Shown: positions 12,379-46,429 of the stretch, in pieces
How positions within the stretch are numbered: the first letter of the stretch is position 1
Layout: each line of letters starts with the position of its first letter
Assembly (NCBI GenBank): GCA_944392145.1
Contig: CALXVS010000003.1
Coordinates: forward strand, 7,594-71,593
Length of the DNA stretch: 64,000 nucleotides
Direction of reading: 5' to 3'
From: an uncultured Alphaproteobacteria bacterium
Lineage (GTDB): Bacteria > Pseudomonadota > Alphaproteobacteria > CAAHEQ01 > UBA3637
Position numbers and translations under genes: made by a program
Notes under the pieces: generated by a model
The model's input: only the letters and a program-made list of their open reading frames with translations
Database searches by the model: none
Told to the model about the DNA's origin: nothing

Positions 12379-15300
12379 ATGTCGGAACGTTTTTTCGGCA
12401 ATAAACCGTTTTTGCCGTTATTGTTGTCATATTTTATTTCGGCAGTTAATGAAAATTTTATTCGGATTGTATTTTTATTTTTCGTGACTTATCAAATGAC
12501 GCAAACAAGTCCCGCTTTTTTTGTGTCGGCCGTTATTCTTTATTTTCTTTTTTTCTGTATCGGTGCTGTGTGTTCAGGACAGATTGCTGATAAAATTTCA
12601 AAAGTGAAATTTTTGGTATTTGTTCGGCTGTTTGAAGTTATGATTATGGCTATGGCGCTTTTAAGTATATTTATGGATTCACGGTTACTATTGACCTTGA
12701 TTGCGGCGGCTATGGGATTTGCTAATGCTTGTTTGCGGGTTGTTAATTATTCCGTTATGCCTCAGCTTGTTGACAGGAATCATTTAAATACCGGTAATAT
12801 TTGGATGAAAGTGGCGACATTTTTTTCTGCCGGGTGTGCGGCTCTTTTATTGACATCAATTTTAAAATTTAATGCCGCATATCAAGTGATTTGTTTGATT
12901 GGACTGATTTTGGCAGTGGTCAGCTTATTTGTTACGTTGAAACTCCCGTTAACAGATCCGGTTGATCCCGACAGCCGGATCAGTAAAAATCCGATTGCTG
13001 TTTTTGATTTTGTGGCGCGACAAATTAAAAATCGGTTTGATTTATGGACGTATTTGGTTGGTATCGCGTGGTTTTGGATATTGGGAACACTTGTTTTTGT
13101 TTTTTCTGCTGAATATGGCCATTCTGTTTTAAATGCTCGTTGGTCAACGGTTATGTTTTTATCCACAGGCGTTTTTACATTCGGATTTATAGGGGGGGGC
13201 TATTTATACCGAAAATTATCGGCTACTGGAAATTTCAGCGGACATATTTGTTTGACAACATTGGCTATTTCTGTTTTTTTATGTGATTTAGTTTTCGCGG
13301 GATTTTCAATTGAAACAATGCAAGCCCCAAAAGCCGTTTCGGTTATTCGGATGTTTAGTGAGTTTGAATATATTCGGGTGCTGATTGATGTGGCAGCATT
13401 GGGAATATTGGCCGGATTATATATTATTCCTTTTTATACGTTGCTTCAGCTAGGAACACCAGAAAGAATTTTGGGACGGGTAATGTCCTTTTCGGGAATG
13501 GTAAATGCCTTATCTGTCGCTGGTGCTTTTTTAGTGGTTTTAAGTTTTAAAATCTTGTCTTTTTCAGTCTTGGATATTTTATTATGTTTCGGCATTGTAA
13601 ATATTTTTGTTGGTATTTACATGGTACGTTTGTTGCCGATTCAAACACGTCGGCGGGTGTTTCGGGTTGTATTCAAGTTATTGTTTCATGCGCGCATAAA
13701 AGGTCTTGAGAACCTTAAAAAGGCAGGAGATAAGGCATTAATTATCACCAATCATACATCTTATTTAGATGTGTTATTGATTTCAACTTTTATTGATCGG
13801 CCGATTGTTTTTGCTGTCAGTGATCAGTTGATTGACAAAACAGTGGTTAAATTTATGACCAATTTAGTGGATGTGCGTCCTTTGGATCCAATGAGCCCGT
13901 TTGCCGTTAAAGCAATGGTGGAGGAATTAAAGAAAAATCAGTTGTGCATGATCTTTACCGAAGGCATTATTGAAGGCGGTAACACACGGATGAAAATTTA
14001 TGAAGGGCCGGCGATGATGGCTTTAAAGGCAGAGGCTCCGATTGTTCCAATTCGGATTGACGGTGCCGATCAAACGTTTTTTTCCCGTGTTCTTAAAACA
14101 AAAGCGCCGTTTCGCTTTTTCCCGACCATAACATTGACGGTTAAAAAACCGGTATTTTTTGATTTGCCCGATGATTTAACAACACGTGAATGCCGTGAAA
14201 AATCAAGTTCTATGTTATTTGATGTGTTGTCTGATATGACATTTGAAAATTATCGGATTAATCGCACCGTTTTCGGAGCGTTAGCCGATTCAATGCAAAT
14301 GGTCGGGCGATTTAAACGTGTTTTGGAAGATACCGATCGAAAACCGTTGTCATTCTGGGCCGTGTTTATGCGTTCTTTCATTTTAGGGCGTTTGTTGAAA
14401 CGAGCGTTGTCGGATGAAAAAGAAGTTGGATTGATGGTGCCGACATCTAATACATGTGCCCTTTGCTTTTTGGGGTTACATGCTTTTGGGAAAACGCCGG
14501 CAATGATCAATTTTACATCTGGTCCCAAACAGGTGATCGCAACATGCCGCACGGTGGGATTGAAAACAATTGTAACGGCTAAAAAAGTTGTATTATTGGC
14601 TAAATTAGAGGGGCTTGTCAGTGCTGTTGAAGAAGCGGGCATTCGGGTGCTATATTTAGAAGATTTAAAACCGACGCTCTCCTTTACCGATAAAATGATC
14701 GGTATCATCGGCGGGATGTTCCCAAAACTTCTTTATCGTAAGGTTGAAGCTACGCAAACGCCTGAAGATCCGGCGGTTATTTTATTTACTTCCGGTTCAG
14801 AAGGATTCCCGAAAGCGGTTTTCCTGACACACCGAAATTTGTTGGCAAACTGCTATCAGATTCCGTCGCGGTTTGATGTGTATCCGACAGACGTATTTTT
14901 AAACTGCTTGCCGATGTTCCATTCTTTCGGATTGGGGGCCGGTACGATTTTACCCCTGTTATTGGGGGTAAAAACTGTTTTGTATCCGACACCGTTGCAC
15001 TATCGGATTATTCCGGAAATTTGTGCTTCGGCCAAAGCAACAATTTTTTTCGGAACGGATACGTTCTTGGCCGGGTATGCAAAATGTGCCAATCCGTATG
15101 ATTTTAACAGTTTAAGAATTGTTGCTGCGGGGGCAGAAAAAGTCAAAGATGAAACGCGTAAAATTTGGGCCGAAAAATTCGGCGTGCGACTCTTTGAGGG
15201 GTATGGTGCGACCGAATGTTCACCGTTTATTTCCGTGAATACCTTTTTACATCAAAAGAAAGGATCCGTCGGCCGGTTATTGCCGCATATTGAATATCGT

Positions 15301-15795
15301 TTAAAGCCGGTTGAGGGTATTAAAGAGGGGAAGGAGTTGTGGATTAAAGGGCCCAATATTATGAAAGGTTATATGCGTTATGACAAGCCGTTGGTATTGG
15401 ATCCGCCTGCAGACGGTTGGTATGATACGGGTGATATTGTTGACATTGATGCGGAAGGGTATATTTTTATTAAAGGACGATGCAAACGGTTTGCCAAAAT
15501 CGGAGGTGAAATGGTATCACTTTTAGCCGTTGAGCAAGTCATTGATAAACGCTGGCCTGGGTTTGTTTTTGGGGCAGTTAGTATCCCCGACGCCCGTAAG
15601 GGGGAGCAAATTGTTTTGATTACAACATGTCCGGATGTGAATAGAGAGGAAATGGTTGTCGCTTTTAAAGCCGCCGGTGTGACCGAGTTAGGGCTCCCTT
15701 CAAAAGTGATTGTGACCAATACGCCGCCCTTGCTGGGAACGGGTAAATTTGATTATGTCCTGGCCAAAGAGCTGGCGCAAAAAGGTGTGGCGTGA
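12379..15795 (+). CDS. aas: tri-domain fusion: MFS lysophospholipid transporter (LplT-like) + 1-acyl-glycerol-phosphate-type acyltransferase (PlsC) + acyl-ACP synthetase (AMP-binding); Aas-like
   Basis: 1138 aa. N-terminal about 420 aa has 12 TM helices. Middle domain has HxxxxD acyltransferase context (ITNHTSYLDV). C-terminal AMP-binding motifs (LFTSGSEGFPKAV; YGATEC; GWYDTGD; KIGGEMVSL). Confidence 0.8.
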   Translation: MSERFFGNKPFLPLLLSYFISAVNENFIRIVFLFFVTYQMTQTSPAFFVSAVILYFLFFCIGAVCSGQIADKISKVKFLVFVRLFEVMIMAMALLSIFMDSRLLLTLIAAAMGFANACLRVVNYSVMPQLVDRNHLNTGNIWMKVATFFSAGCAALLLTSILKFNAAYQVICLIGLILAVVSLFVTLKLPLTDPVDPDSRISKNPIAVFDFVARQIKNRFDLWTYLVGIAWFWILGTLVFVFSAEYGHSVLNARWSTVMFLSTGVFTFGFIGGGYLYRKLSATGNFSGHICLTTLAISVFLCDLVFAGFSIETMQAPKAVSVIRMFSEFEYIRVLIDVAALGILAGLYIIPFYTLLQLGTPERILGRVMSFSGMVNALSVAGAFLVVLSFKILSFSVLDILLCFGIVNIFVGIYMVRLLPIQTRRRVFRVVFKLLFHARIKGLENLKKAGDKALIITNHTSYLDVLLISTFIDRPIVFAVSDQLIDKTVVKFMTNLVDVRPLDPMSPFAVKAMVEELKKNQLCMIFTEGIIEGGNTRMKIYEGPAMMALKAEAPIVPIRIDGADQTFFSRVLKTKAPFRFFPTITLTVKKPVFFDLPDDLTTRECREKSSSMLFDVLSDMTFENYRINRTVFGALADSMQMVGRFKRVLEDTDRKPLSFWAVFMRSFILGRLLKRALSDEKEVGLMVPTSNTCALCFLGLHAFGKTPAMINFTSGPKQVIATCRTVGLKTIVTAKKVVLLAKLEGLVSAVEEAGIRVLYLEDLKPTLSFTDKMIGIIGGMFPKLLYRKVEATQTPEDPAVILFTSGSEGFPKAVFLTHRNLLANCYQIPSRFDVYPTDVFLNCLPMFHSFGLGAGTILPLLLGVKTVLYPTPLHYRIIPEICASAKATIFFGTDTFLAGYAKCANPYDFNSLRIVAAGAEKVKDETRKIWAEKFGVRLFEGYGATECSPFISVNTFLHQKKGSVGRLLPHIEYRLKPVEGIKEGKELWIKGPNIMKGYMRYDKPLVLDPPADGWYDTGDIVDIDAEGYIFIKGRCKRFAKIGGEMVSLLAVEQVIDKRWPGFVFGAVSIPDARKGEQIVLITTCPDVNREEMVVAFKAAGVTELGLPSKVIVTNTPPLLGTGKFDYVLAKELAQKGVA

Positions 15796-19402: not shown

Positions 19403-22219
19403 ATGTTATTATCAAAATTAGCCACGTATTTAGGTCTTGCTGATCAGGTCAAAACGGATGTTGAAATAACCGGTCTTTCAAACGATTCGCGCCGGATAAA
19501 AGAGGGATATTTGTTTATTGCCGTTACCGGAGAAAAAAATGACGGAAAGGCTTTTATTGCCCAAGCCATTGCTGCGGGTGCCGTTGCGGTTTTAAGTGAT
19601 TCGGATACAGATGTGTCTGTCCCGGTATTAAAAGTGGCAGATGTGCGGTTAACAGCAGCACGGTTAGCGGCTTTTTTCTATTCATCGGATCAAATGATGA
19701 AAGTGGCCGTTACGGGAACAAACGGAAAAACATCTACCGTTTTTTATGTGCAACAAATCATGAATGCCGCTGGTATTTTATCAGCCAGTTTGGGAACGGT
19801 CGGTGTGGCCTCTCCCGTTTTTCGGCAAGACGGCAGTATGACGACACCGGACAGCATTCAGTTAAATCAAACTTTGCAGACTTTAAGTGAAAAAGGGGTT
19901 CGGGTAACGGCATTGGAAGCATCATCTCACGGATTGGATCAAGGCCGGTTGGAAGGATTGTGTTTTCAGGCGGCCGCTTTTACGAATTTGACACTGGATC
20001 ACTTGGATTATCACAAAACCATGGAACAGTATTTTGAGGCCAAGAAAAAACTGTTTTCAACTTATTTGAAAAAAGACGGAACCGCGGTTTTGAATGCGGA
20101 TATTCCCGAATATGCGGCATTAAAAGAAATTTGTGACAAACAAGGTATCCGCATTTTGTCTTACGGGATAAAGGGGGCTGATTTAACAATTATATCACAG
20201 AAACTTGTTCCGACGGGACAAGATGTCGTTTTACGATTGTTGGGAACAACATATGCGATTCATTTGAATATTTTGGGGGATTTTCAACTGATGAATTTTT
20301 TGGCAGCCGTCGGATTATGTCTGGGGGCGGGCTTAACGATTGATCGGATTATGGAAATTGCTCCGACACTTCAAGCACCGACGGGACGCATGGAAGCGGT
20401 TTGCCGACTTGAAAACGGGGCCCAAATTTTTGTTGATTATGCGCACACACCGGATGCATTGTCCCGTGTTTTAACTTCTTTAAAAGCACATGTTGCCGGC
20501 CGATTGATTTGTTTGTTCGGATGTGGCGGAAACAGAGATACATCAAAGCGACCTCAAATGGGACAAATTGCCGAACAAACGGCAGATGTTGTCTATATTA
20601 CCGATGATAATCCCCGATTTGAAGATCCGGCGGCTATTCGTGCCCAAATTGCGGCAGCCTGCCCGAAAGGAATTGTAATAGATAACCGATCTCGTGCTGT
20701 TTTTGAAGCGGTCAGTTCTTTAAAAGAAAACGATGTGTTGGTTTTGGCAGGAAAAGGGCATGAATCCGGTCAAACGATTCAAGGAGTTTCTTTCGCTTAT
20801 AACGATGCGGTGGAAGCTAAACTGGCTGCTTTAAGTCAGGACAAGCTGCCCTTGTGGTCTGCTGGGGAGCTGTCTTTAGCCTTATCGGTGCCTGTCGCAT
20901 CGGAAATCGCCGTGTTCGGTATTTCACGCGATACCCGAACACTGTGTATCGGTGATTTGTTTGTTGCGTTAAAAGGGGAGCAAACAGACGGACATCGTTT
21001 TGTTTATGAGGCAGTTCATCGCGGAGCGGCTGCGTGTTTGGTGGATCATGTGGTTGAAGCGGTTCCCTTGAATAAACAAATTGTTGTGCCTGACACGATG
21101 GCGGCATTAGATGCTTTGGCGCGCTATGCCCGTATGCGCAGTGATGCTGTTTTTATTGGGATAACGGGCAGTTCCGGCAAAACAACGACAAAAGAAATGT
21201 TAAAAGCCTGTTTATCCCGGCAAGGTTTAACACATGCGACTGAAGGAAATTATAATAATCAGTTGGGTGTTCCCCTAACGTTGGTGCAAATGCCACGAGA
21301 AACACAATTTGCCATTATTGAAATGGGGATGAACCATTTTGGTGAGTTGATGTATTTATCGGATTTAGTGCGTCCCCAAGTATCAGTCATTACGACCGTT
21401 GGGGCTGCACACCGGGCTTATTTTAAAAGCGATGCCGATATCGCAACAGCCAAATCGGAAATTTTTGAGTTTCAAGATATGGATGGAACCGCTTTGTTAA
21501 ATAAAGAAAATCCCTTTTTTGATCAAGTAGCAGCGGCGGCACATCAGCATGGCATCAAGCATGTTATTTCTTTCGGGGAAAGAGGAGATATTTTTGCCGT
21601 TTGTGAGCGAATCCGTGGCGATAAAACTTTTGTAGAAGCGTGTGTCCGCGGGCAAAATGTGACATATAACCTGAATTATTTGGGACATCACTTTGTGTTG
21701 GATTCATTAGCCGTATTGGGGGCAGTGGAAGCGGCCGGTGCCAGTGTTCCGGCGGCCGCATCGGTTTTGGAAACGGTTTTTCCGATGTCAGGGCGGGGTG
21801 CCAAAGAAATCATTACCTTGCCTGATGGAGAAGAAGTGGTTTTGATTGATGACGCTTATAATGCGAATCCGGCCTCTATGAAAGCGTCGTTAAAAACATT
21901 GGGGCTGATGCCTTGTGCGGGTCGGCGTATTGCCGTTTTGGGGGATATGTTGGAATTGGGTGAAACGGCTCTTGACATCCATCTTGATTTAAGGCAAACT
22001 CTCCTCACGCAACAAATAGATCAGGTTTTTGTGACCGGAGAGCTGATGGGTGCGTTATTCAAAACACTTCCGACGGCACTTCAAGGAGCAGCGGTTTCAT
22101 CGGCCGGTGATTTAATCCCGATATTGAAACGCGAATTGCGTCCGAACGATGTTGTTTTGGTCAAGGCATCGCATGGTTCCGGTTTAACTGCCGTTGTTCA
22201 GGGACTTAAAGGAGTTTAA
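19403..22219 (+). CDS. murEF: fused MurE-MurF: UDP-MurNAc-L-Ala-D-Glu--meso-DAP ligase fused in frame to UDP-MurNAc-tripeptide--D-Ala-D-Ala ligase
   Basis: One continuous 938-aa ORF. Residues 1 to about 475 are MurE (GTNGKTST, DNPR, GKGHE C-terminus). Residues about 480-938 are MurF (GITGSSGKTTTKEM, DDAYNANP). A short linker ...AALSQDKLPLWSAGEL... joins them with no stop codon. Confidence 0.85.
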   Translation: MLLSKLATYLGLADQVKTDVEITGLSNDSRRIKEGYLFIAVTGEKNDGKAFIAQAIAAGAVAVLSDSDTDVSVPVLKVADVRLTAARLAAFFYSSDQMMKVAVTGTNGKTSTVFYVQQIMNAAGILSASLGTVGVASPVFRQDGSMTTPDSIQLNQTLQTLSEKGVRVTALEASSHGLDQGRLEGLCFQAAAFTNLTLDHLDYHKTMEQYFEAKKKLFSTYLKKDGTAVLNADIPEYAALKEICDKQGIRILSYGIKGADLTIISQKLVPTGQDVVLRLLGTTYAIHLNILGDFQLMNFLAAVGLCLGAGLTIDRIMEIAPTLQAPTGRMEAVCRLENGAQIFVDYAHTPDALSRVLTSLKAHVAGRLICLFGCGGNRDTSKRPQMGQIAEQTADVVYITDDNPRFEDPAAIRAQIAAACPKGIVIDNRSRAVFEAVSSLKENDVLVLAGKGHESGQTIQGVSFAYNDAVEAKLAALSQDKLPLWSAGELSLALSVPVASEIAVFGISRDTRTLCIGDLFVALKGEQTDGHRFVYEAVHRGAAACLVDHVVEAVPLNKQIVVPDTMAALDALARYARMRSDAVFIGITGSSGKTTTKEMLKACLSRQGLTHATEGNYNNQLGVPLTLVQMPRETQFAIIEMGMNHFGELMYLSDLVRPQVSVITTVGAAHRAYFKSDADIATAKSEIFEFQDMDGTALLNKENPFFDQVAAAAHQHGIKHVISFGERGDIFAVCERIRGDKTFVEACVRGQNVTYNLNYLGHHFVLDSLAVLGAVEAAGASVPAAASVLETVFPMSGRGAKEIITLPDGEEVVLIDDAYNANPASMKASLKTLGLMPCAGRRIAVLGDMLELGETALDIHLDLRQTLLTQQIDQVFVTGELMGALFKTLPTALQGAAVSSAGDLIPILKRELRPNDVVLVKASHGSGLTAVVQGLKGV

Positions 22220-43882: not shown

Positions 43883-43913
43883 AAAACCGCCGGTGTTTTT
43901 CCGGCGGTTTTTC
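43883..43913. terminator. bidirectional rho-independent terminator shared by rplS (+) and the convergent Cys-rich gene (-)
   Basis: aaaaccgccgg-tgttttt-ccggcggtttttc. An A-run precedes and a T-run follows the 7-bp GC stem. The stop of the minus-strand gene is at 43914-43916. Confidence 0.75.
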
Positions 43914-46154
43914 TTATTGCACCAGCACGCATTTGCCGTCTTTGACCACACGTTCGGCACAATTGATGCAACTTTCAACATCTGCCTGTGTTTCAAGAGT
44001 TGGTGTTTCTCTTGTATTACACAGATAGCACTTTTTGCTGGCCATAAATCGCTGTGGAGAACAGGCTAAACATAATTGAGCTGTATAATCATCCGAACCA
44101 ATTGATGGTGCATCCGCCGATTCGCACAGAAAACATGCGCCCGTGTATGTCATTCCCTGTGTTCCGGATACGCATTTTTTCATAGCACATTGACCGCTTA
44201 CTAACGCAATTCGTTCATAGGTACTGCAACCATTACATAGAGCAACTTCATATTCCCCTGTGCCAATGGATAGGGAACGTGTATCATCACACCCTTGGCA
44301 ATAGGTGCCGGAGGATTCTAAAAAAGAATAGCCTAATTTACATTTTTCCAACACACAATATCCGCTGCTGTTCACATGACGGTTGGGACACGCGGCACAT
44401 TGTTCCCGTAGTGCGTCAGTCGTGACCTTAAACCCGTTTGCATAATCACAGGCATAACAAGCACCATTATCTAAACGTACGCCGTTTGTGCAATCTTTGA
44501 TTTGACATTTCCCGTCCACAATTTCCCGACCACAGATGTCTGTTTCACAACCGGAACCCGTTTCGGAAACAGCAATAGCCGTATTACTGCTACATTTATA
44601 ACATATCCCATCGGCCCCCATGAATTCATTTGAATCACAAATTACTTTAACACAATAGTTACCCACAACTTTTCTGTTTTTAACGCCTTCCGCGTTAACG
44701 CAAGCTTTGCACAGTTCTTGTTCATGCGGGCCGGTACCGATGTTTAATTTATCTGTTGAAGCACAGGAATTGGCGCACCCGCTATTGCTACCACCGGATG
44801 TCAAGTAGCGTAATTGTGTTCCTTTGACACATTTATCCGTTATGACACATCCCCCATAACCGGTTACATGGCGATTACCGCAAGCGTTACACCATTCTTT
44901 CCCCCAAGGAGCTCCTCCCGTCCACTGATCAGCGGAATCAGAACAGGCGGCACATTTTGAGAAACCACGACTCGTGATAACGGGGAAACTTTCACCTTTA
45001 ATGCATTTGTCTCGGCGGGCGCACAATCTGGAAGACGAATCCCAAATGCGATTGGGGCATAAATTACACTGTTCTTGTGTAACAGCATATAATCCTTCAT
45101 CTTTACAAGAAATACAAGTTGTTTGGTATTCAAATTCACCTTCTTGACAATTAGAATCTACACATGTCAGTTGGGTGTAATCCCATACCATTTTCGCCGG
45201 ACACAAACAGTCGTTCGTGTAAATGTCCAGATAGGTGTTGCCCGAACAGTGACACTGAAAGTCCTCTTCGCCAAAATACCCTTTCTCGGAACACGCTTCG
45301 TGTGTTCCCAGATCATTTTTATAAATAAAGCCCATATCGTTCAGGGCTGTTTCATCACAGATGGTTGTATCGGCGTTATAGCGCACGTTATTGACAAAGA
45401 TCATGATAGGGTTTTCATAATCGCGCAGGATTTGACGACACAGATCAGCCGGGATATCGCTGACCAGGATTTCAAAGTAATCGGTGTTTCTGTCCGAGAT
45501 AGCGGTTTCAACGGGGAAACCGACGGTCAGGGTATCGCCGAATCCGTCTTCAATCAGTTCGTTTTTTTCATAGACAGTGCCGGTGTTAAGCATTTGGGCG
45601 GACACATTGATAGCGCGCATGTTGAGTTCGTTGGTGACTTCATTGGCGCGGAACTTTAACAGGGCGAAACGATACCCGGCGACGGCAGCAATACTTAACA
45701 CGCCGATAATGGCCAAGACCCCCAACATCTCTATCATAGAACGACCTGTTTCGGACAAGAGAGGACGGCGGGCGGACACGGACGGAGACAGGGTGTCGCT
45801 GTCCGTGACGCATCTTTGCCCGTCATGCTTGGCGTTGCGAGCCTCCCGAATAAATGAGACCGTTTTACCCGCGATAGCGGACAACCAAGTCCATGTCATC
45901 CTTGTGCTTGACACGAGGATCCAGGAAAAATGATGCCGCTTTTTTTGATTCTGAACATCCCGCATAAATAAGGAATTATTGACACTGGATCCTCGCATAC
46001 GCAAGGATGACCGCCGGGGAAGGCGTTGCGGGGAAAGGGTTCTTTCACCATTCGTGACGTCTCCCCCGTCGGCATAACCGATGTTGCAAGCATCCGACAA
46101 AACCGCTTTAACCCCTTTTCCCTTAACCCATACCTTTTTAAATACGTTCCACAT
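43914..46154 (-). CDS. large cysteine-rich tandem-repeat protein with type IV pilin/pseudopilin-like N-terminal helix (function unknown)
   Basis: The ORF-track frame is open to 46184 (TTG). The preferred start is ATG 46152-46154, which has a GGGAGG SD 4 nt upstream. Residues 148-171 (RSMIEMLGVLAIIGVLSIAAVAGY) match the prepilin N-methylation helix consensus with G at -1 and E at +5. They are followed by helix-like and globular-head-like sequence. Residues about 290-756 hold about 53 Cys arranged in at least 6 tandem modules of about 50 aa (G.C..C...IGTG..E..LC.AC.N.R.V...G.CV...C). Confidence 0.6.
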   Translation of the reverse strand: MWNVFKKVWVKGKGVKAVLSDACNIGYADGGDVTNGERTLSPQRLPRRSSLRMRGSSVNNSLFMRDVQNQKKRHHFSWILVSSTRMTWTWLSAIAGKTVSFIREARNAKHDGQRCVTDSDTLSPSVSARRPLLSETGRSMIEMLGVLAIIGVLSIAAVAGYRFALLKFRANEVTNELNMRAINVSAQMLNTGTVYEKNELIEDGFGDTLTVGFPVETAISDRNTDYFEILVSDIPADLCRQILRDYENPIMIFVNNVRYNADTTICDETALNDMGFIYKNDLGTHEACSEKGYFGEEDFQCHCSGNTYLDIYTNDCLCPAKMVWDYTQLTCVDSNCQEGEFEYQTTCISCKDEGLYAVTQEQCNLCPNRIWDSSSRLCARRDKCIKGESFPVITSRGFSKCAACSDSADQWTGGAPWGKEWCNACGNRHVTGYGGCVITDKCVKGTQLRYLTSGGSNSGCANSCASTDKLNIGTGPHEQELCKACVNAEGVKNRKVVGNYCVKVICDSNEFMGADGICYKCSSNTAIAVSETGSGCETDICGREIVDGKCQIKDCTNGVRLDNGACYACDYANGFKVTTDALREQCAACPNRHVNSSGYCVLEKCKLGYSFLESSGTYCQGCDDTRSLSIGTGEYEVALCNGCSTYERIALVSGQCAMKKCVSGTQGMTYTGACFLCESADAPSIGSDDYTAQLCLACSPQRFMASKKCYLCNTRETPTLETQADVESCINCAERVVKDGKCVLVQ

Positions 46155-46188
46155 GCAACCTCCCATAAAACAGCTTGGTTTCAACCTG

Positions 46189-46223
46189 TTCTTTATGTTA
46201 CATAAAGGAACCTTTTTGTAACG
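46189..46223 (-). promoter_or_regulatory. candidate operator: 7-1-7 palindrome TTTATGT-t-ACATAAA abutting imperfect palindrome AAAGGAACCTTTTTGTAACG (site 1)
   Basis: Read directly; lies 35-70 nt upstream of the proposed start of the Cys-rich gene. Near-identical to the second copy at 46337..46356. Confidence 0.4.
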
Positions 46224-46336
46224 CCCGAATCGGACAAAAACAAATAATGGGATTTTTTTGTTCTAACACACTTATTTAAATGCAAAATCAGCTAATTTTT
46301 CTTTTTTTCAAAAACCATAAAAAAACAGTTGCAAAA

Positions 46337-46356
46337 AAAGGTTCCTTTTTGTAACG
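46337..46356 (-). promoter_or_regulatory. second copy of site AAAGGTTCCTTTTTGTAACG (core GGAACC inverted to GGTTCC)
   Basis: Matches site 1 at 18/20 positions. The flanks are a direct repeat while the hexamer core is inverted. The two sites are 133 bp apart. Confidence 0.4.
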
Positions 46357-46404: not shown

Positions 46405-46429
46405 AAAAAACCCCTCGTCTAAAGAGGGG
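46405..46429 (-). terminator. rho-independent terminator of the PH-domain gene (minus strand)
   Basis: Minus strand reads cccctc-tttagac-gagggg followed by TTTTTT. It insulates the downstream Cys-rich gene. Confidence 0.7.

Follow-up and report, generated by a model that had tools for sequence, protein, structure and literature searches.

The DNA analysed here, a stretch of 64,000 nucleotides (nt) that we call the window, was taken from the assembly of an uncultured Alphaproteobacteria bacterium (GenBank GCA_944392145.1, contig CALXVS010000003.1, positions 7,594 to 71,593 of the forward strand). On its minus strand lies a large gene whose product combines a long basic leader, a pilin-like helix with a beta-sheet head, and a C-terminal rod of cysteine-rich repeats. 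The features of the gene are collected in Table 1, where residues are numbered from the start of the mechanically called open reading frame (ORF). This ORF encodes 58 Cys in all and contains a second in-frame ATG at 46166, besides the favoured start at 46154. After the predicted cleavage at Gly147, the mature protein would comprise 609 aa. As set out below, we think it likely that the gene encodes a modular type IVb-class pilin.

Table 1. Coordinates of the gene and its flanking elements in the window
Feature	Position (nt)	Strand	Remarks
Mechanical ORF	43914..46184	-	756 aa from a TTG start at 46184
Favoured coding sequence	ATG 46154 to stop codon 43916..43914	-	746-aa precursor; start chosen on comparative evidence
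Shine-Dalgarno sequence GGGAGG	46159..46164	-	4-nt spacer to ATG 46154, slightly short
Leader, Met11 to Gly147	45744..46154	-	137 aa; mosaic of modules that differ between paralogues
Hairpin repeat unit GTCATCCTTGCGTATGCGAGGATCCAG	45985..46011	-	inside leader; translated as RRSSLRMRGS
Inverted partner hairpin unit GTCATCCTTGTGCTTGACACGAGGATCCAG	45895..45924	+	translated on the gene strand as SWILVSSTRMT
Predicted mature N-terminus alpha1N, RSMIEMLGVLAIIGVLSIAAVAGY	45672..45743	-	predicted cleavage between Gly147 and Arg148
Pilin module, residues 148-297	45294..45743	-	alpha1 helix at residues 145-201, beta-sheet head at residues ~224-289
Cys-rich connector, residues 298-345	45150..45293	-	six Cys, including CHC and CLC
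Seven tandem six-Cys modules, residues 346-718	44031..45149	-	48, 58, 64, 49, 50, 56 and 48 aa
Terminal half-module, residues 719-756	43917..44030	-	five Cys
Proximal palindrome GTTACAAAAAGGTTCCTTTATGTAAC, core AAAGGWWCCTTT	46197..46222	.	26 nt; ends 37 nt before ATG 46166 and 49 nt before ATG 46154
Distal palindrome copy GTTACAAAAAGGAACCTTTTTTTGCAAC	46330..46356	.	start of the ~370-nt 5' cassette
Intrinsic terminator of the upstream bPH_2 gene	46411..46427	-	from terminator scan; 5' limit of the island
Bidirectional terminator hairpin AAAAACCGCCGG-TGTTTTT-CCGGCGGTTTTT	43883..43913	both	common to the convergent rplS

The class III (prepilin) signal reads ...SETG147 followed by RSMIEMLGVLAIIGVLSIAAVAGY, with Gly at -1, Glu at +5 and Tyr at +24 of the predicted cleavage site. 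The original prediction had recognised an N-methylation helix of the pilin type here, and comparison with relatives bears this out. In the two family alignments (16 and 43 sequences), Gly-1 (G12) and Glu+5 (E17) never vary, Arg+1 (R13) is invariant in the 16-sequence alignment and nearly so in the 43-sequence one, and the Ser that follows is near-invariant. The motif G-[RKQ]-S-M-x-E occurs at 114 sites in the related loci that we fetched. Residues 148-171, a tract of 24 residues, form the sole hydrophobic segment of the protein. A translation start at or after Met150, which the original prediction had regarded as a possible argument against a pilin, is excluded because the invariant Gly and the near-invariant Arg-Ser would then be lost. 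A sequence search of the PDB returned only PilA-N of Geobacter at E = 1, aligned exactly as expected for a pilin.

The residues behind the helix had been described as having the character of a pilin head, and the structural prediction agrees. An AlphaFold2 model of the pilin region, built with 43 homologues, has a predicted local distance difference test score (pLDDT) of 86 and consists of a 57-residue helix (model residues 10-66) and strands from 89 to 154. It thus has the 'lollipop' shape of an alpha1 helix of ~50 residues projecting from a beta-sheet head. In a Foldseek search against the PDB, the top 12 matches were all type IVb pilins (eight with a probability of 1.0 or 0.99; TM-score on target 0.40-0.50), and the best were CofA (9iuf_A), TcpA (8uhf) and PilS (3fhu), each with a probability of 1.0 and a TM-score on target of 0.46-0.50. 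The region matched in this way extends from residue 136 to ~330. According to the model, the head has the complete type IVb pilin fold, and a pair of cysteines in it (Cys249/Cys276) is invariant across the family alignments. Type IVb pilins are distinguished by a variable, non-Phe residue at +1, the lack of Pro22 and glycines in alpha1N (PMC10710030). All three hallmarks are present in the window protein, which has Arg at +1, Ala at +22 and Gly at +8, +14 and +23.

The pilin module is followed by a rod of ~460 aa. Modelling of this region with AlphaFold, as the original prediction had proposed, yielded a predicted fold with a pLDDT of 90. The last 466 residues (291-756) contain 52 Cys (11.2%) and 14 CxxC motifs, practically the richness estimated at first sight (about 53 Cys in about 470 aa). 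A BLAST self-comparison of the repeat region gave no matches, the modules being too diverged, and the modules were therefore defined from their cysteine spacing, C-x(10-17)-CxxC-x(12-17)-CxxC-x(10-15)-C-x(4-5). As a cysteine framework the tandem modules described earlier are real, and their count had to be raised by one or two, to seven and a half, with the series starting at nt 45149 instead of 44987. The module cysteines show no or almost no variation across the 43 homologues, and the last nine residues (the DGKCVLVQ tail) are 84% conserved among paralogues. The cysteines presumably form disulfide bonds rather than bind metal.

The earlier statement that the repeats belong to no named domain family stands, and nothing placed them in a well-known family with a described role. 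Pfam revealed no repeat family at E-values up to 1, with no match to the furin-like, EGF, TNFR, Giardia VSP or Myxo_Cys_RPT families; no NCBIfam family matched the repeat unit; and the best Foldseek match of the rod had an E-value of 0.02 and a probability of 0.08. A full phmmer scan of 1.84 billion representative proteins recovered only 79 clusters with the repeat type. Among them are non-pilin proteins (P0217, P0219, P0229, P0233, P0253, P0257, P0262 and P0272) with CxxC...CxxC-x-N-R repeats behind ordinary Sec signal peptides. Pfam placed no domain on the repeats of such non-pilin proteins (P0228, a match of 1616 aa, has VIT domains elsewhere). Since the repeat also stands behind Sec signal peptides and is blank in Pfam there, it appears to be an independent, unnamed extracellular module that was grafted onto a pilin.

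A protein search recovered 82 relatives, almost all of them unnamed metagenomic proteins. A motif scan (GRSM[VI]E[MI]LG / VLA[IL][IV]GVLS) of one genome per GTDB species gave more than 595 sites, at least 562 of them confirmed copies, with many copies per genome. Nearly all of the confirmed copies are in metagenome-assembled genomes (MAGs) named 'uncultured Alphaproteobacteria bacterium', which come from human, ruminant and rabbit gut. Up to four copies were found in one 22-kb locus, and copies were present on eight contigs of one MAG. On a 213-kb contig of a related genome (ERZ24773292 NODE_64), four paralogues lie tens of kb apart, each as a single gene between unrelated housekeeping genes. 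No name for the family was found in the databases or literature searched, and a literature search on the host lineage and pili yielded nothing relevant. Judged by these sequences, it is a large, unannotated, multi-copy and variable family restricted to gut Alphaproteobacteria.

The closest paralogues share 78-99% identity over mature residues 1-180 and 20-58% beyond, with the cysteine framework kept; between the heads of paralogues dispersed among housekeeping genes, identity is 20-45%. The near-identical part spans ORF residues 148-328, and the last nine residues are shared as well; the paralogue-constant part of the connector runs to ~residue 328 (nt 45201), where the variable region starts. 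The paralogues thus combine a constant N-terminal part with alternative C-terminal parts. In other MAGs (loci L053, L035, L043, L021 and L006), the same N-terminal helix occurs in proteins with a mature length of only 113-140 aa, often encoded several in a row, and these are candidates for the major pilin, i.e. the fibre subunit. Among distant relatives, Pfam and NCBIfam gave sub-threshold N-methyl or prepilin matches, and a few EGF-type matches in other members. Heads resembling C-type lectins or Hint domains, which were suspected by eye in some distant members, were not confirmed by Pfam and are not claimed. As a separate observation, the third-codon-position GC content shifts inside the window gene, from 0.58 in the constant pilin module (45201-45743) to 0.36 in the variable part (43917-45200); that of the housekeeping genes in the window is 0.38-0.51. 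The shift suggests differing histories of the two gene parts, e.g. gene conversion that homogenises the constant part.

An ortholog in the same gene order is present in locus L083, with 99-100% identity in the flanks and in most of the gene. Four short tracts (46095-46122, 45835-45985, 45266-45356 and 43966-44065) show only 25-86% identity, which fits patchwise exchange with paralogues; replaced tracts are seen in the leader and near the 3' end. The two genes differ by 20 synonymous and 18 non-synonymous codon changes, and no cysteine is lost. The patchy replaced tracts and the absence of cysteine loss in this comparison indicate that the gene is intact, under constraint and exchanging segments.

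The leader is the most unusual part of the gene. Prepilin leaders comprise a few residues up to ~30 aa, those of type IVb major pilins being ~13-30 aa long; the favoured start gives 137 aa. The original prediction had noticed a basic, Ser/Arg-rich extension of this length in front of the pilin motif, and its composition accords with that description: 23 K/R and 10 D/E (net charge +13), 17 Ser and no hydrophobic segment. The usual leader in the family has 6-20 aa from an ATG, e.g. MQIRVNETG. The window's clade has no such nearby ATG, and its only nearby alternatives, GTG 45779 (-12) and TTG 45758 (-5), are both without a Shine-Dalgarno sequence. In P0010-type paralogues there is no start codon of any kind closer than -33.

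Comparison of the paralogues favours, without proving it, the start that had been singled out before, ATG 46154 with its GGGAGG. This Shine-Dalgarno sequence is identical in five paralogous or orthologous loci (L002, L083, L084, L089 and L090), and a Shine-Dalgarno sequence precedes the leader ATG in every locus where the DNA was read. Some 20 close paralogues have at least 11 leader architectures, 47-168 aa in length, all of which are open and in frame from the ATG. Two alternative ATG modules open these leaders (MWNVFKK... or MHFKGFF...), and a similar M-x-x-x-F-K-K-type opening is seen in short and long leaders. The leader stretches of the paralogues contain no stops in frame versus 1-12 in the other frames, and the probability of a stop-free stretch in shuffled sequences was 0.000-0.068. 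The differences between the leaders of the window gene and its ortholog, an equal-length replacement of 28 nt and a length difference of 75 nt, keep the frame.

Additional evidence on the start codon comes from a palindrome of 26-28 nt with the consensus GTTACAAAAAGGWWCCTTT.TG.AAC, two copies of which lie 133 nt apart upstream of the gene. They belong to the 5' cassette, which is at least 95% identical between diverged paralogues. The core AAAGGWWCCTTT has two copies in the window, both upstream of the gene, and 23 copies in the related loci (1.34 Mb). Of the 18 family genes with an upstream copy, 16 have its end 37-60 nt ahead of the first in-frame ATG, with leaders that range from 9 to 141 codons. 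A regulator common to the family probably uses the palindrome as its operator. The idea that the two palindromes enclose an invertible promoter was also considered and is unsupported, the orientation being the same in all six cassette-bearing loci. Because the paralogues stay in frame from an ATG that has a Shine-Dalgarno sequence and stands at the palindrome spacing of the short-leader genes, the long leader is probably real, and we regard translation of all 137 residues from the far ATG as having the better part of the evidence behind it.

The leader also carries two inverted hairpin units (GTCAT...ATCCAG). The units, GTCATCCTTGCGTATGCGAGGATCCAG and GTCATCCTTGTGCTTGACACGAGGATCCAG, pair to form a stem of ~27 bp around ~60 nt (-51.1 kcal/mol, z -3.4). 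A pattern with fixed spacing found nothing, and a variable gap was required to detect them. In the window they occur just these two times, which rules them out as a genome-wide repeat of the repetitive extragenic palindromic type; in the related loci, clear copies of the hairpin type are mostly found immediately upstream of family members. In further branches of the family, long called leaders (P0044, P0054, P0041, P0049, P0065 and P0071) contain repeat translations of their own, such as SVTLGRSETKTRGSR, SRSHECRIETG and GSRGMRPGRSG; leaders therefore seem to have been invaded by short repeats more than once.

The window is otherwise ordinary chromosome, with ftsK, lipid A genes, a cell-wall synthesis cluster, ffh-rpsP-rimM-trmD-rplS, secA and a resistance-nodulation-division efflux pump. 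The gene is an isolated single-gene island between a bPH_2 gene on its 5' side and rplS-trmD on the other side. Terminators on both sides, as the original prediction had described, were recovered: the upstream one by the terminator scan, and the downstream hairpin, A-run/CCGCCGG...CCGGCGG/T-run, by reading of the sequence, being absent from the scan's list. An Rfam search of the whole window found two tRNAs only and no RNA family in the leader region, and no promoter that a sigma-70 scan proposed near the 5' cassette was convincing on the gene strand. Likewise, the absence of pilus-assembly and secretin genes nearby was confirmed; neither these nor peptidase genes were found in the window by a Pfam scan of ORFs (30 of the 60 ORFs of at least 120 aa, including all within ~8 kb and unidentified ORFs of 220-250 aa) and by whole-window motif and tblastn scans. 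The gene is therefore not clustered with assembly genes in the way expected of type IVb pilins.

A few other features of the window and the lineage are worth recording. The ORF at 19403-22219 (plus strand, 938 aa) contains the complete set of Mur ligase domains twice, with two stretches matching each of the Pfam domains, and by sequence looks like a fused murE-murF gene. The ORF at 12379-15795 (plus strand, 1138 aa) is a fusion of a major facilitator superfamily transporter with an acyltransferase and an AMP-binding enzyme, which resembles a lysophospholipid transporter linked to Aas. The ORF falls in the stretch with the lowest GC content in the window (0.34-0.37 vs ~0.45). Ankyrin-repeat proteins, which are eukaryote-like and often found in host-associated bacteria, are encoded at 4243-4944 (plus strand) of the window and at 7026-7445 of locus L090.

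An assembly machine for a type IVb pilus is encoded in the closely related genome with near-identical paralogues (ERZ24773292 NODE_64). A single cluster there contains, in order, genes for a 370-aa protein, TcpQ, a secretin, PAP_PilO, a 315-aa protein, a 768-aa T2SSE ATPase and a T2SSF platform protein, which we take to be the pilN-O-P-Q-R order of the R64 thin-pilus operon. Of five paralogues, only one abuts the cluster, directly upstream of it, and the others are dispersed. In another MAG (L011), homologues of the secretin and PilO were found ~6 kb from a family gene. A lone gene for a 116-aa conjugative (type IV secretion) pilin of the TrbC/VirB2 type was noted in locus L085 (1241-1591, minus strand) on ERZ24773292 NODE_64, between a family paralogue and the type IVb assembly genes of that contig.

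Taken together, we consider it somewhat better than an even bet that the gene encodes a modular type IVb-class pilin which is translated from ATG 46154, cleaved at Gly147 and incorporated into a pilus, probably at its tip. Residues 148-171 would insert into the inner membrane, leaving the basic leader in the cytoplasm, and a prepilin peptidase would cut after Gly147. Through its alpha1 helix the mature protein would then enter a IVb machine like that of the R64 thin pilus, the genes for this machine lying elsewhere in the genome. Its position would most likely be at the pilus tip, where the rod of seven and a half modules could act as the binding surface; leader cleavage, pilus assembly, tip position and ligand binding by the rod are all inferred. 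The dispersed paralogues, which have the 5' cassette, the pilin module and the last residues in common and differ in their heads, would provide interchangeable pilus specificities, and a role as interchangeable adhesin is probable. The oversized leader may be a by-product: hairpin repeats and other segments were probably inserted in frame between the cleavage site and the ancestral start codon, which was kept. Such insertions would be tolerated because this part of the protein is removed by cleavage.

Several points weigh against this interpretation, however, and three other ones have to be considered. The profile match that the original prediction expected was obtained in part: the signal itself was found, and the score with Pfam N_methyl (PF07963) is below threshold (E 0.38, 10.8 bits vs a cut-off of 21.2), a low value that results from Arg-Ser-Met standing where Phe-Thr-Leu is usual. 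An NCBIfam search of the protein gave no match, TIGR02532 included, and we know of no precedent for a pilin leader of 137 aa. Translation might instead start at GTG 45779 (MSARRPLLSETG, 12 aa) or TTG 45758 (5 aa), so that the ~400 nt upstream would be a structured regulatory 5' untranslated region and the long open frame a by-product of stop-poor, GC-rich repeat modules. Such a start, which we think unlikely, would agree with the 6-20-aa leaders of most family members, and both codons are in frame; the strong hairpin would suit a regulatory region. Moreover, GC content varies little between the codon positions of the leader (0.49/0.50/0.57), unlike in typical window genes, and the first 170 nt of the leader are conserved to the same degree as the adjacent non-coding DNA upstream. 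The latter applies even where the mature part of a paralogue has diverged with a third-position pattern; the conservation of the early leader is that of a DNA-level cassette, not a protein constraint, and is therefore uninformative on translation. On the other hand, neither codon is preceded by a Shine-Dalgarno sequence, the P0010-type paralogues have no comparable codon to start from, and the close paralogues remain in frame through all their junction architectures. The region also matches no Rfam family, and the palindrome spacing equals that of the short-leader genes only with ATG 46166 or 46154 as the start.

The other two interpretations leave the start codon aside and concern the fate of the protein. 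A motif search and a tblastn search with a PilD query, which covered the window and related loci totalling 1.34 Mb, revealed no prepilin peptidase (A24); the gene lies outside an assembly cluster, which is atypical for type IVb systems; and the repeat type occurs behind Sec signal peptides in other proteins. These observations would also suit a pilin-like segment that serves as an uncleaved signal-anchor, holding the rod in the periplasm or at the inner membrane (e.g. as a sensor or envelope protein) without ever being polymerised. For a simple anchor, however, the invariant Gly-1 and Glu+5 and the near-invariant Arg-Ser are hard to explain, as is a complete type IVb pilin fold in the head; in addition, the lineage has kept a type IVb machine, and the cluster that encodes it has a paralogue as its immediate neighbour. 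We therefore give such an anchor very little credence. In the window's clade, ~100 kb around the assembly cluster and the paralogues of the related genome showed no small major pilin, and the paralogues differ very little in their pilin modules, which would suit subunits that have to co-assemble. This might be seen as a sign that the large proteins polymerise along the whole filament as major subunits of a bottle-brush pilus, with paralogue switching providing antigenic variation rather than tip specificity. That chance appears slim, because the search for a small pilin covered only part of the related genome, members of 113-140 aa with the same N-terminus occur in other MAGs, known bulky modular pilins are minor or tip-located (PMC8179133), and a 450-aa rod on each subunit would be expected to crowd a helical fibre. 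More speculatively, the family could be to bacteria what variant surface-protein families are to parasites. Dozens of dispersed genes, each with a CxxC-rich head of its own, would have in common the pilin module and a recombining 5' cassette (palindromic operator, start codon and mosaic leader); they would serve one type IVb pilus and allow switching without DNA inversion. Paralogues would then be expressed selectively via the shared palindrome, and the leader with its hairpins would be a platform for recombination or control rather than a set of passive insertions. We hold this to be improbable; if true, the cell would change its binding or its appearance to the host.

Modular pilins, in which a pilin module is joined to a bulky extra module, are known, and many of the extra modules have no database signature (PMC8179133). 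The window protein has the same make-up, a pilin module plus an extra module not specific to pilus biology. It resembles PilB and PilC of Streptococcus sanguinis (Raynaud et al. 2021, PMC8179133) in that a class III pilin module carries an extra module for display. It differs in its extra module, a rod of seven and a half six-Cys repeats that has no relative in Pfam or the PDB, in the IVb class of its pilin module, in its diderm host, in the many paralogues per genome, and in a leader of 137 aa rather than 7 aa. The similarity to CofA, TcpA and PilS of Salmonella Typhi consists in the structural matches and in the three sequence hallmarks of type IVb pilins given above; however, those pilins have ~150-200 aa and are encoded in assembly operons, whereas the mature window protein has 609 aa and its gene is far from assembly genes. 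The leaders of type IVb major pilins have been described as 'long' (PMC10710030), and no upper limit on leader length is given in PMC8179133, PMC10191384 or PMC10710030. CofB and TcpB are large, tip-located minor pilins with extra C-terminal domains on a pilin module (PMC8179133, PMC10191384) and are comparable in this respect. CofB has a beta-repeat and a beta-sandwich domain and is encoded by a single operon gene; the fold search of the window protein showed no similarity to it.

Alternative specificities of one pilus are also known from other systems. The alternative C-termini of PilV from the IncI plasmids R64 and TP114 set the binding specificity of the IVb thin pilus in the gut (PMC9045228). 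These shufflon-encoded adhesins share with the family a type IVb minor pilin with a constant N-terminal part and alternative C-terminal parts. In contrast to the shufflon, the variants of the family are separate, full-length, dispersed genes and not cassettes inverted by the Rci recombinase; the family is chromosomal and its heads are far larger and of unknown fold. No cassette array was found downstream of the window gene, sfx sites not being searched for, and a tblastn search of residues 136-330 against 72,556 plasmids revealed no similarity to PilV or PilS, with one match at E = 1 to a Legionella pilin. In the Kil (Tad) pilus of Myxococcus, interchangeable minor-pilin tips form four multi-protein tip complexes (PMC12075869). 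As there, one pilus machine would be combined with several alternative tips that expose variable domains, with the difference that the members of the window family are single-polypeptide IVb modular pilins and occur in larger numbers.

Outside the pilins, the rod is reminiscent of the Cys-rich domains of TNF receptors, the furin-like repeats of the insulin receptor and EGFR, and the variant-specific surface proteins of Giardia, all of which are extracellular rods with ~10-12% Cys and many CxxC motifs. The Giardia proteins form a large family of alternative surface coats. Since the Foldseek matches to such eukaryotic rods were non-significant (probability at most 0.14, E at least 0.02) and Pfam gave no match, we regard this as analogy, not homology. 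Short palindromic repeats inside intact ORFs also recall another alphaproteobacterium: Rickettsia palindromic elements are reportedly inserted in frame into genes (Ogata et al. 2000). The GTCAT...ATCCAG units of the window, for their part, are both located in a leader that is predicted to be cleaved off.

The modular type IV pilin is thus known as a kind. New are a IVb pilin whose unnamed repeat fold is predicted at high confidence, diversification through a large family of dispersed genes found only in uncultured gut Alphaproteobacteria, and a shared 5' cassette with a family-specific palindrome. The leaders, several times longer than any known to us for pilins, appear to count among the new features as well. 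If leaders of 47-168 aa are real, they would change the assumptions of pilin-finding software and of substrate recognition by prepilin peptidases. The notion of the modular pilin is extended in three ways, by a new repeat fold, by variation through a multigene family instead of a shufflon and, if real, by these leaders, and the family-specific upstream palindrome provides a ready marker for the regulon. Humans and livestock widely harbour uncultured gut Alphaproteobacteria, about whose way of life hardly anything has been learned. The family takes up a notable share of their small genomes and is wholly unannotated. Its architecture suggests a repertoire of pilus-displayed binding heads, which may offer a handle on how these bacteria attach to host mucus, food particles and other microbes.

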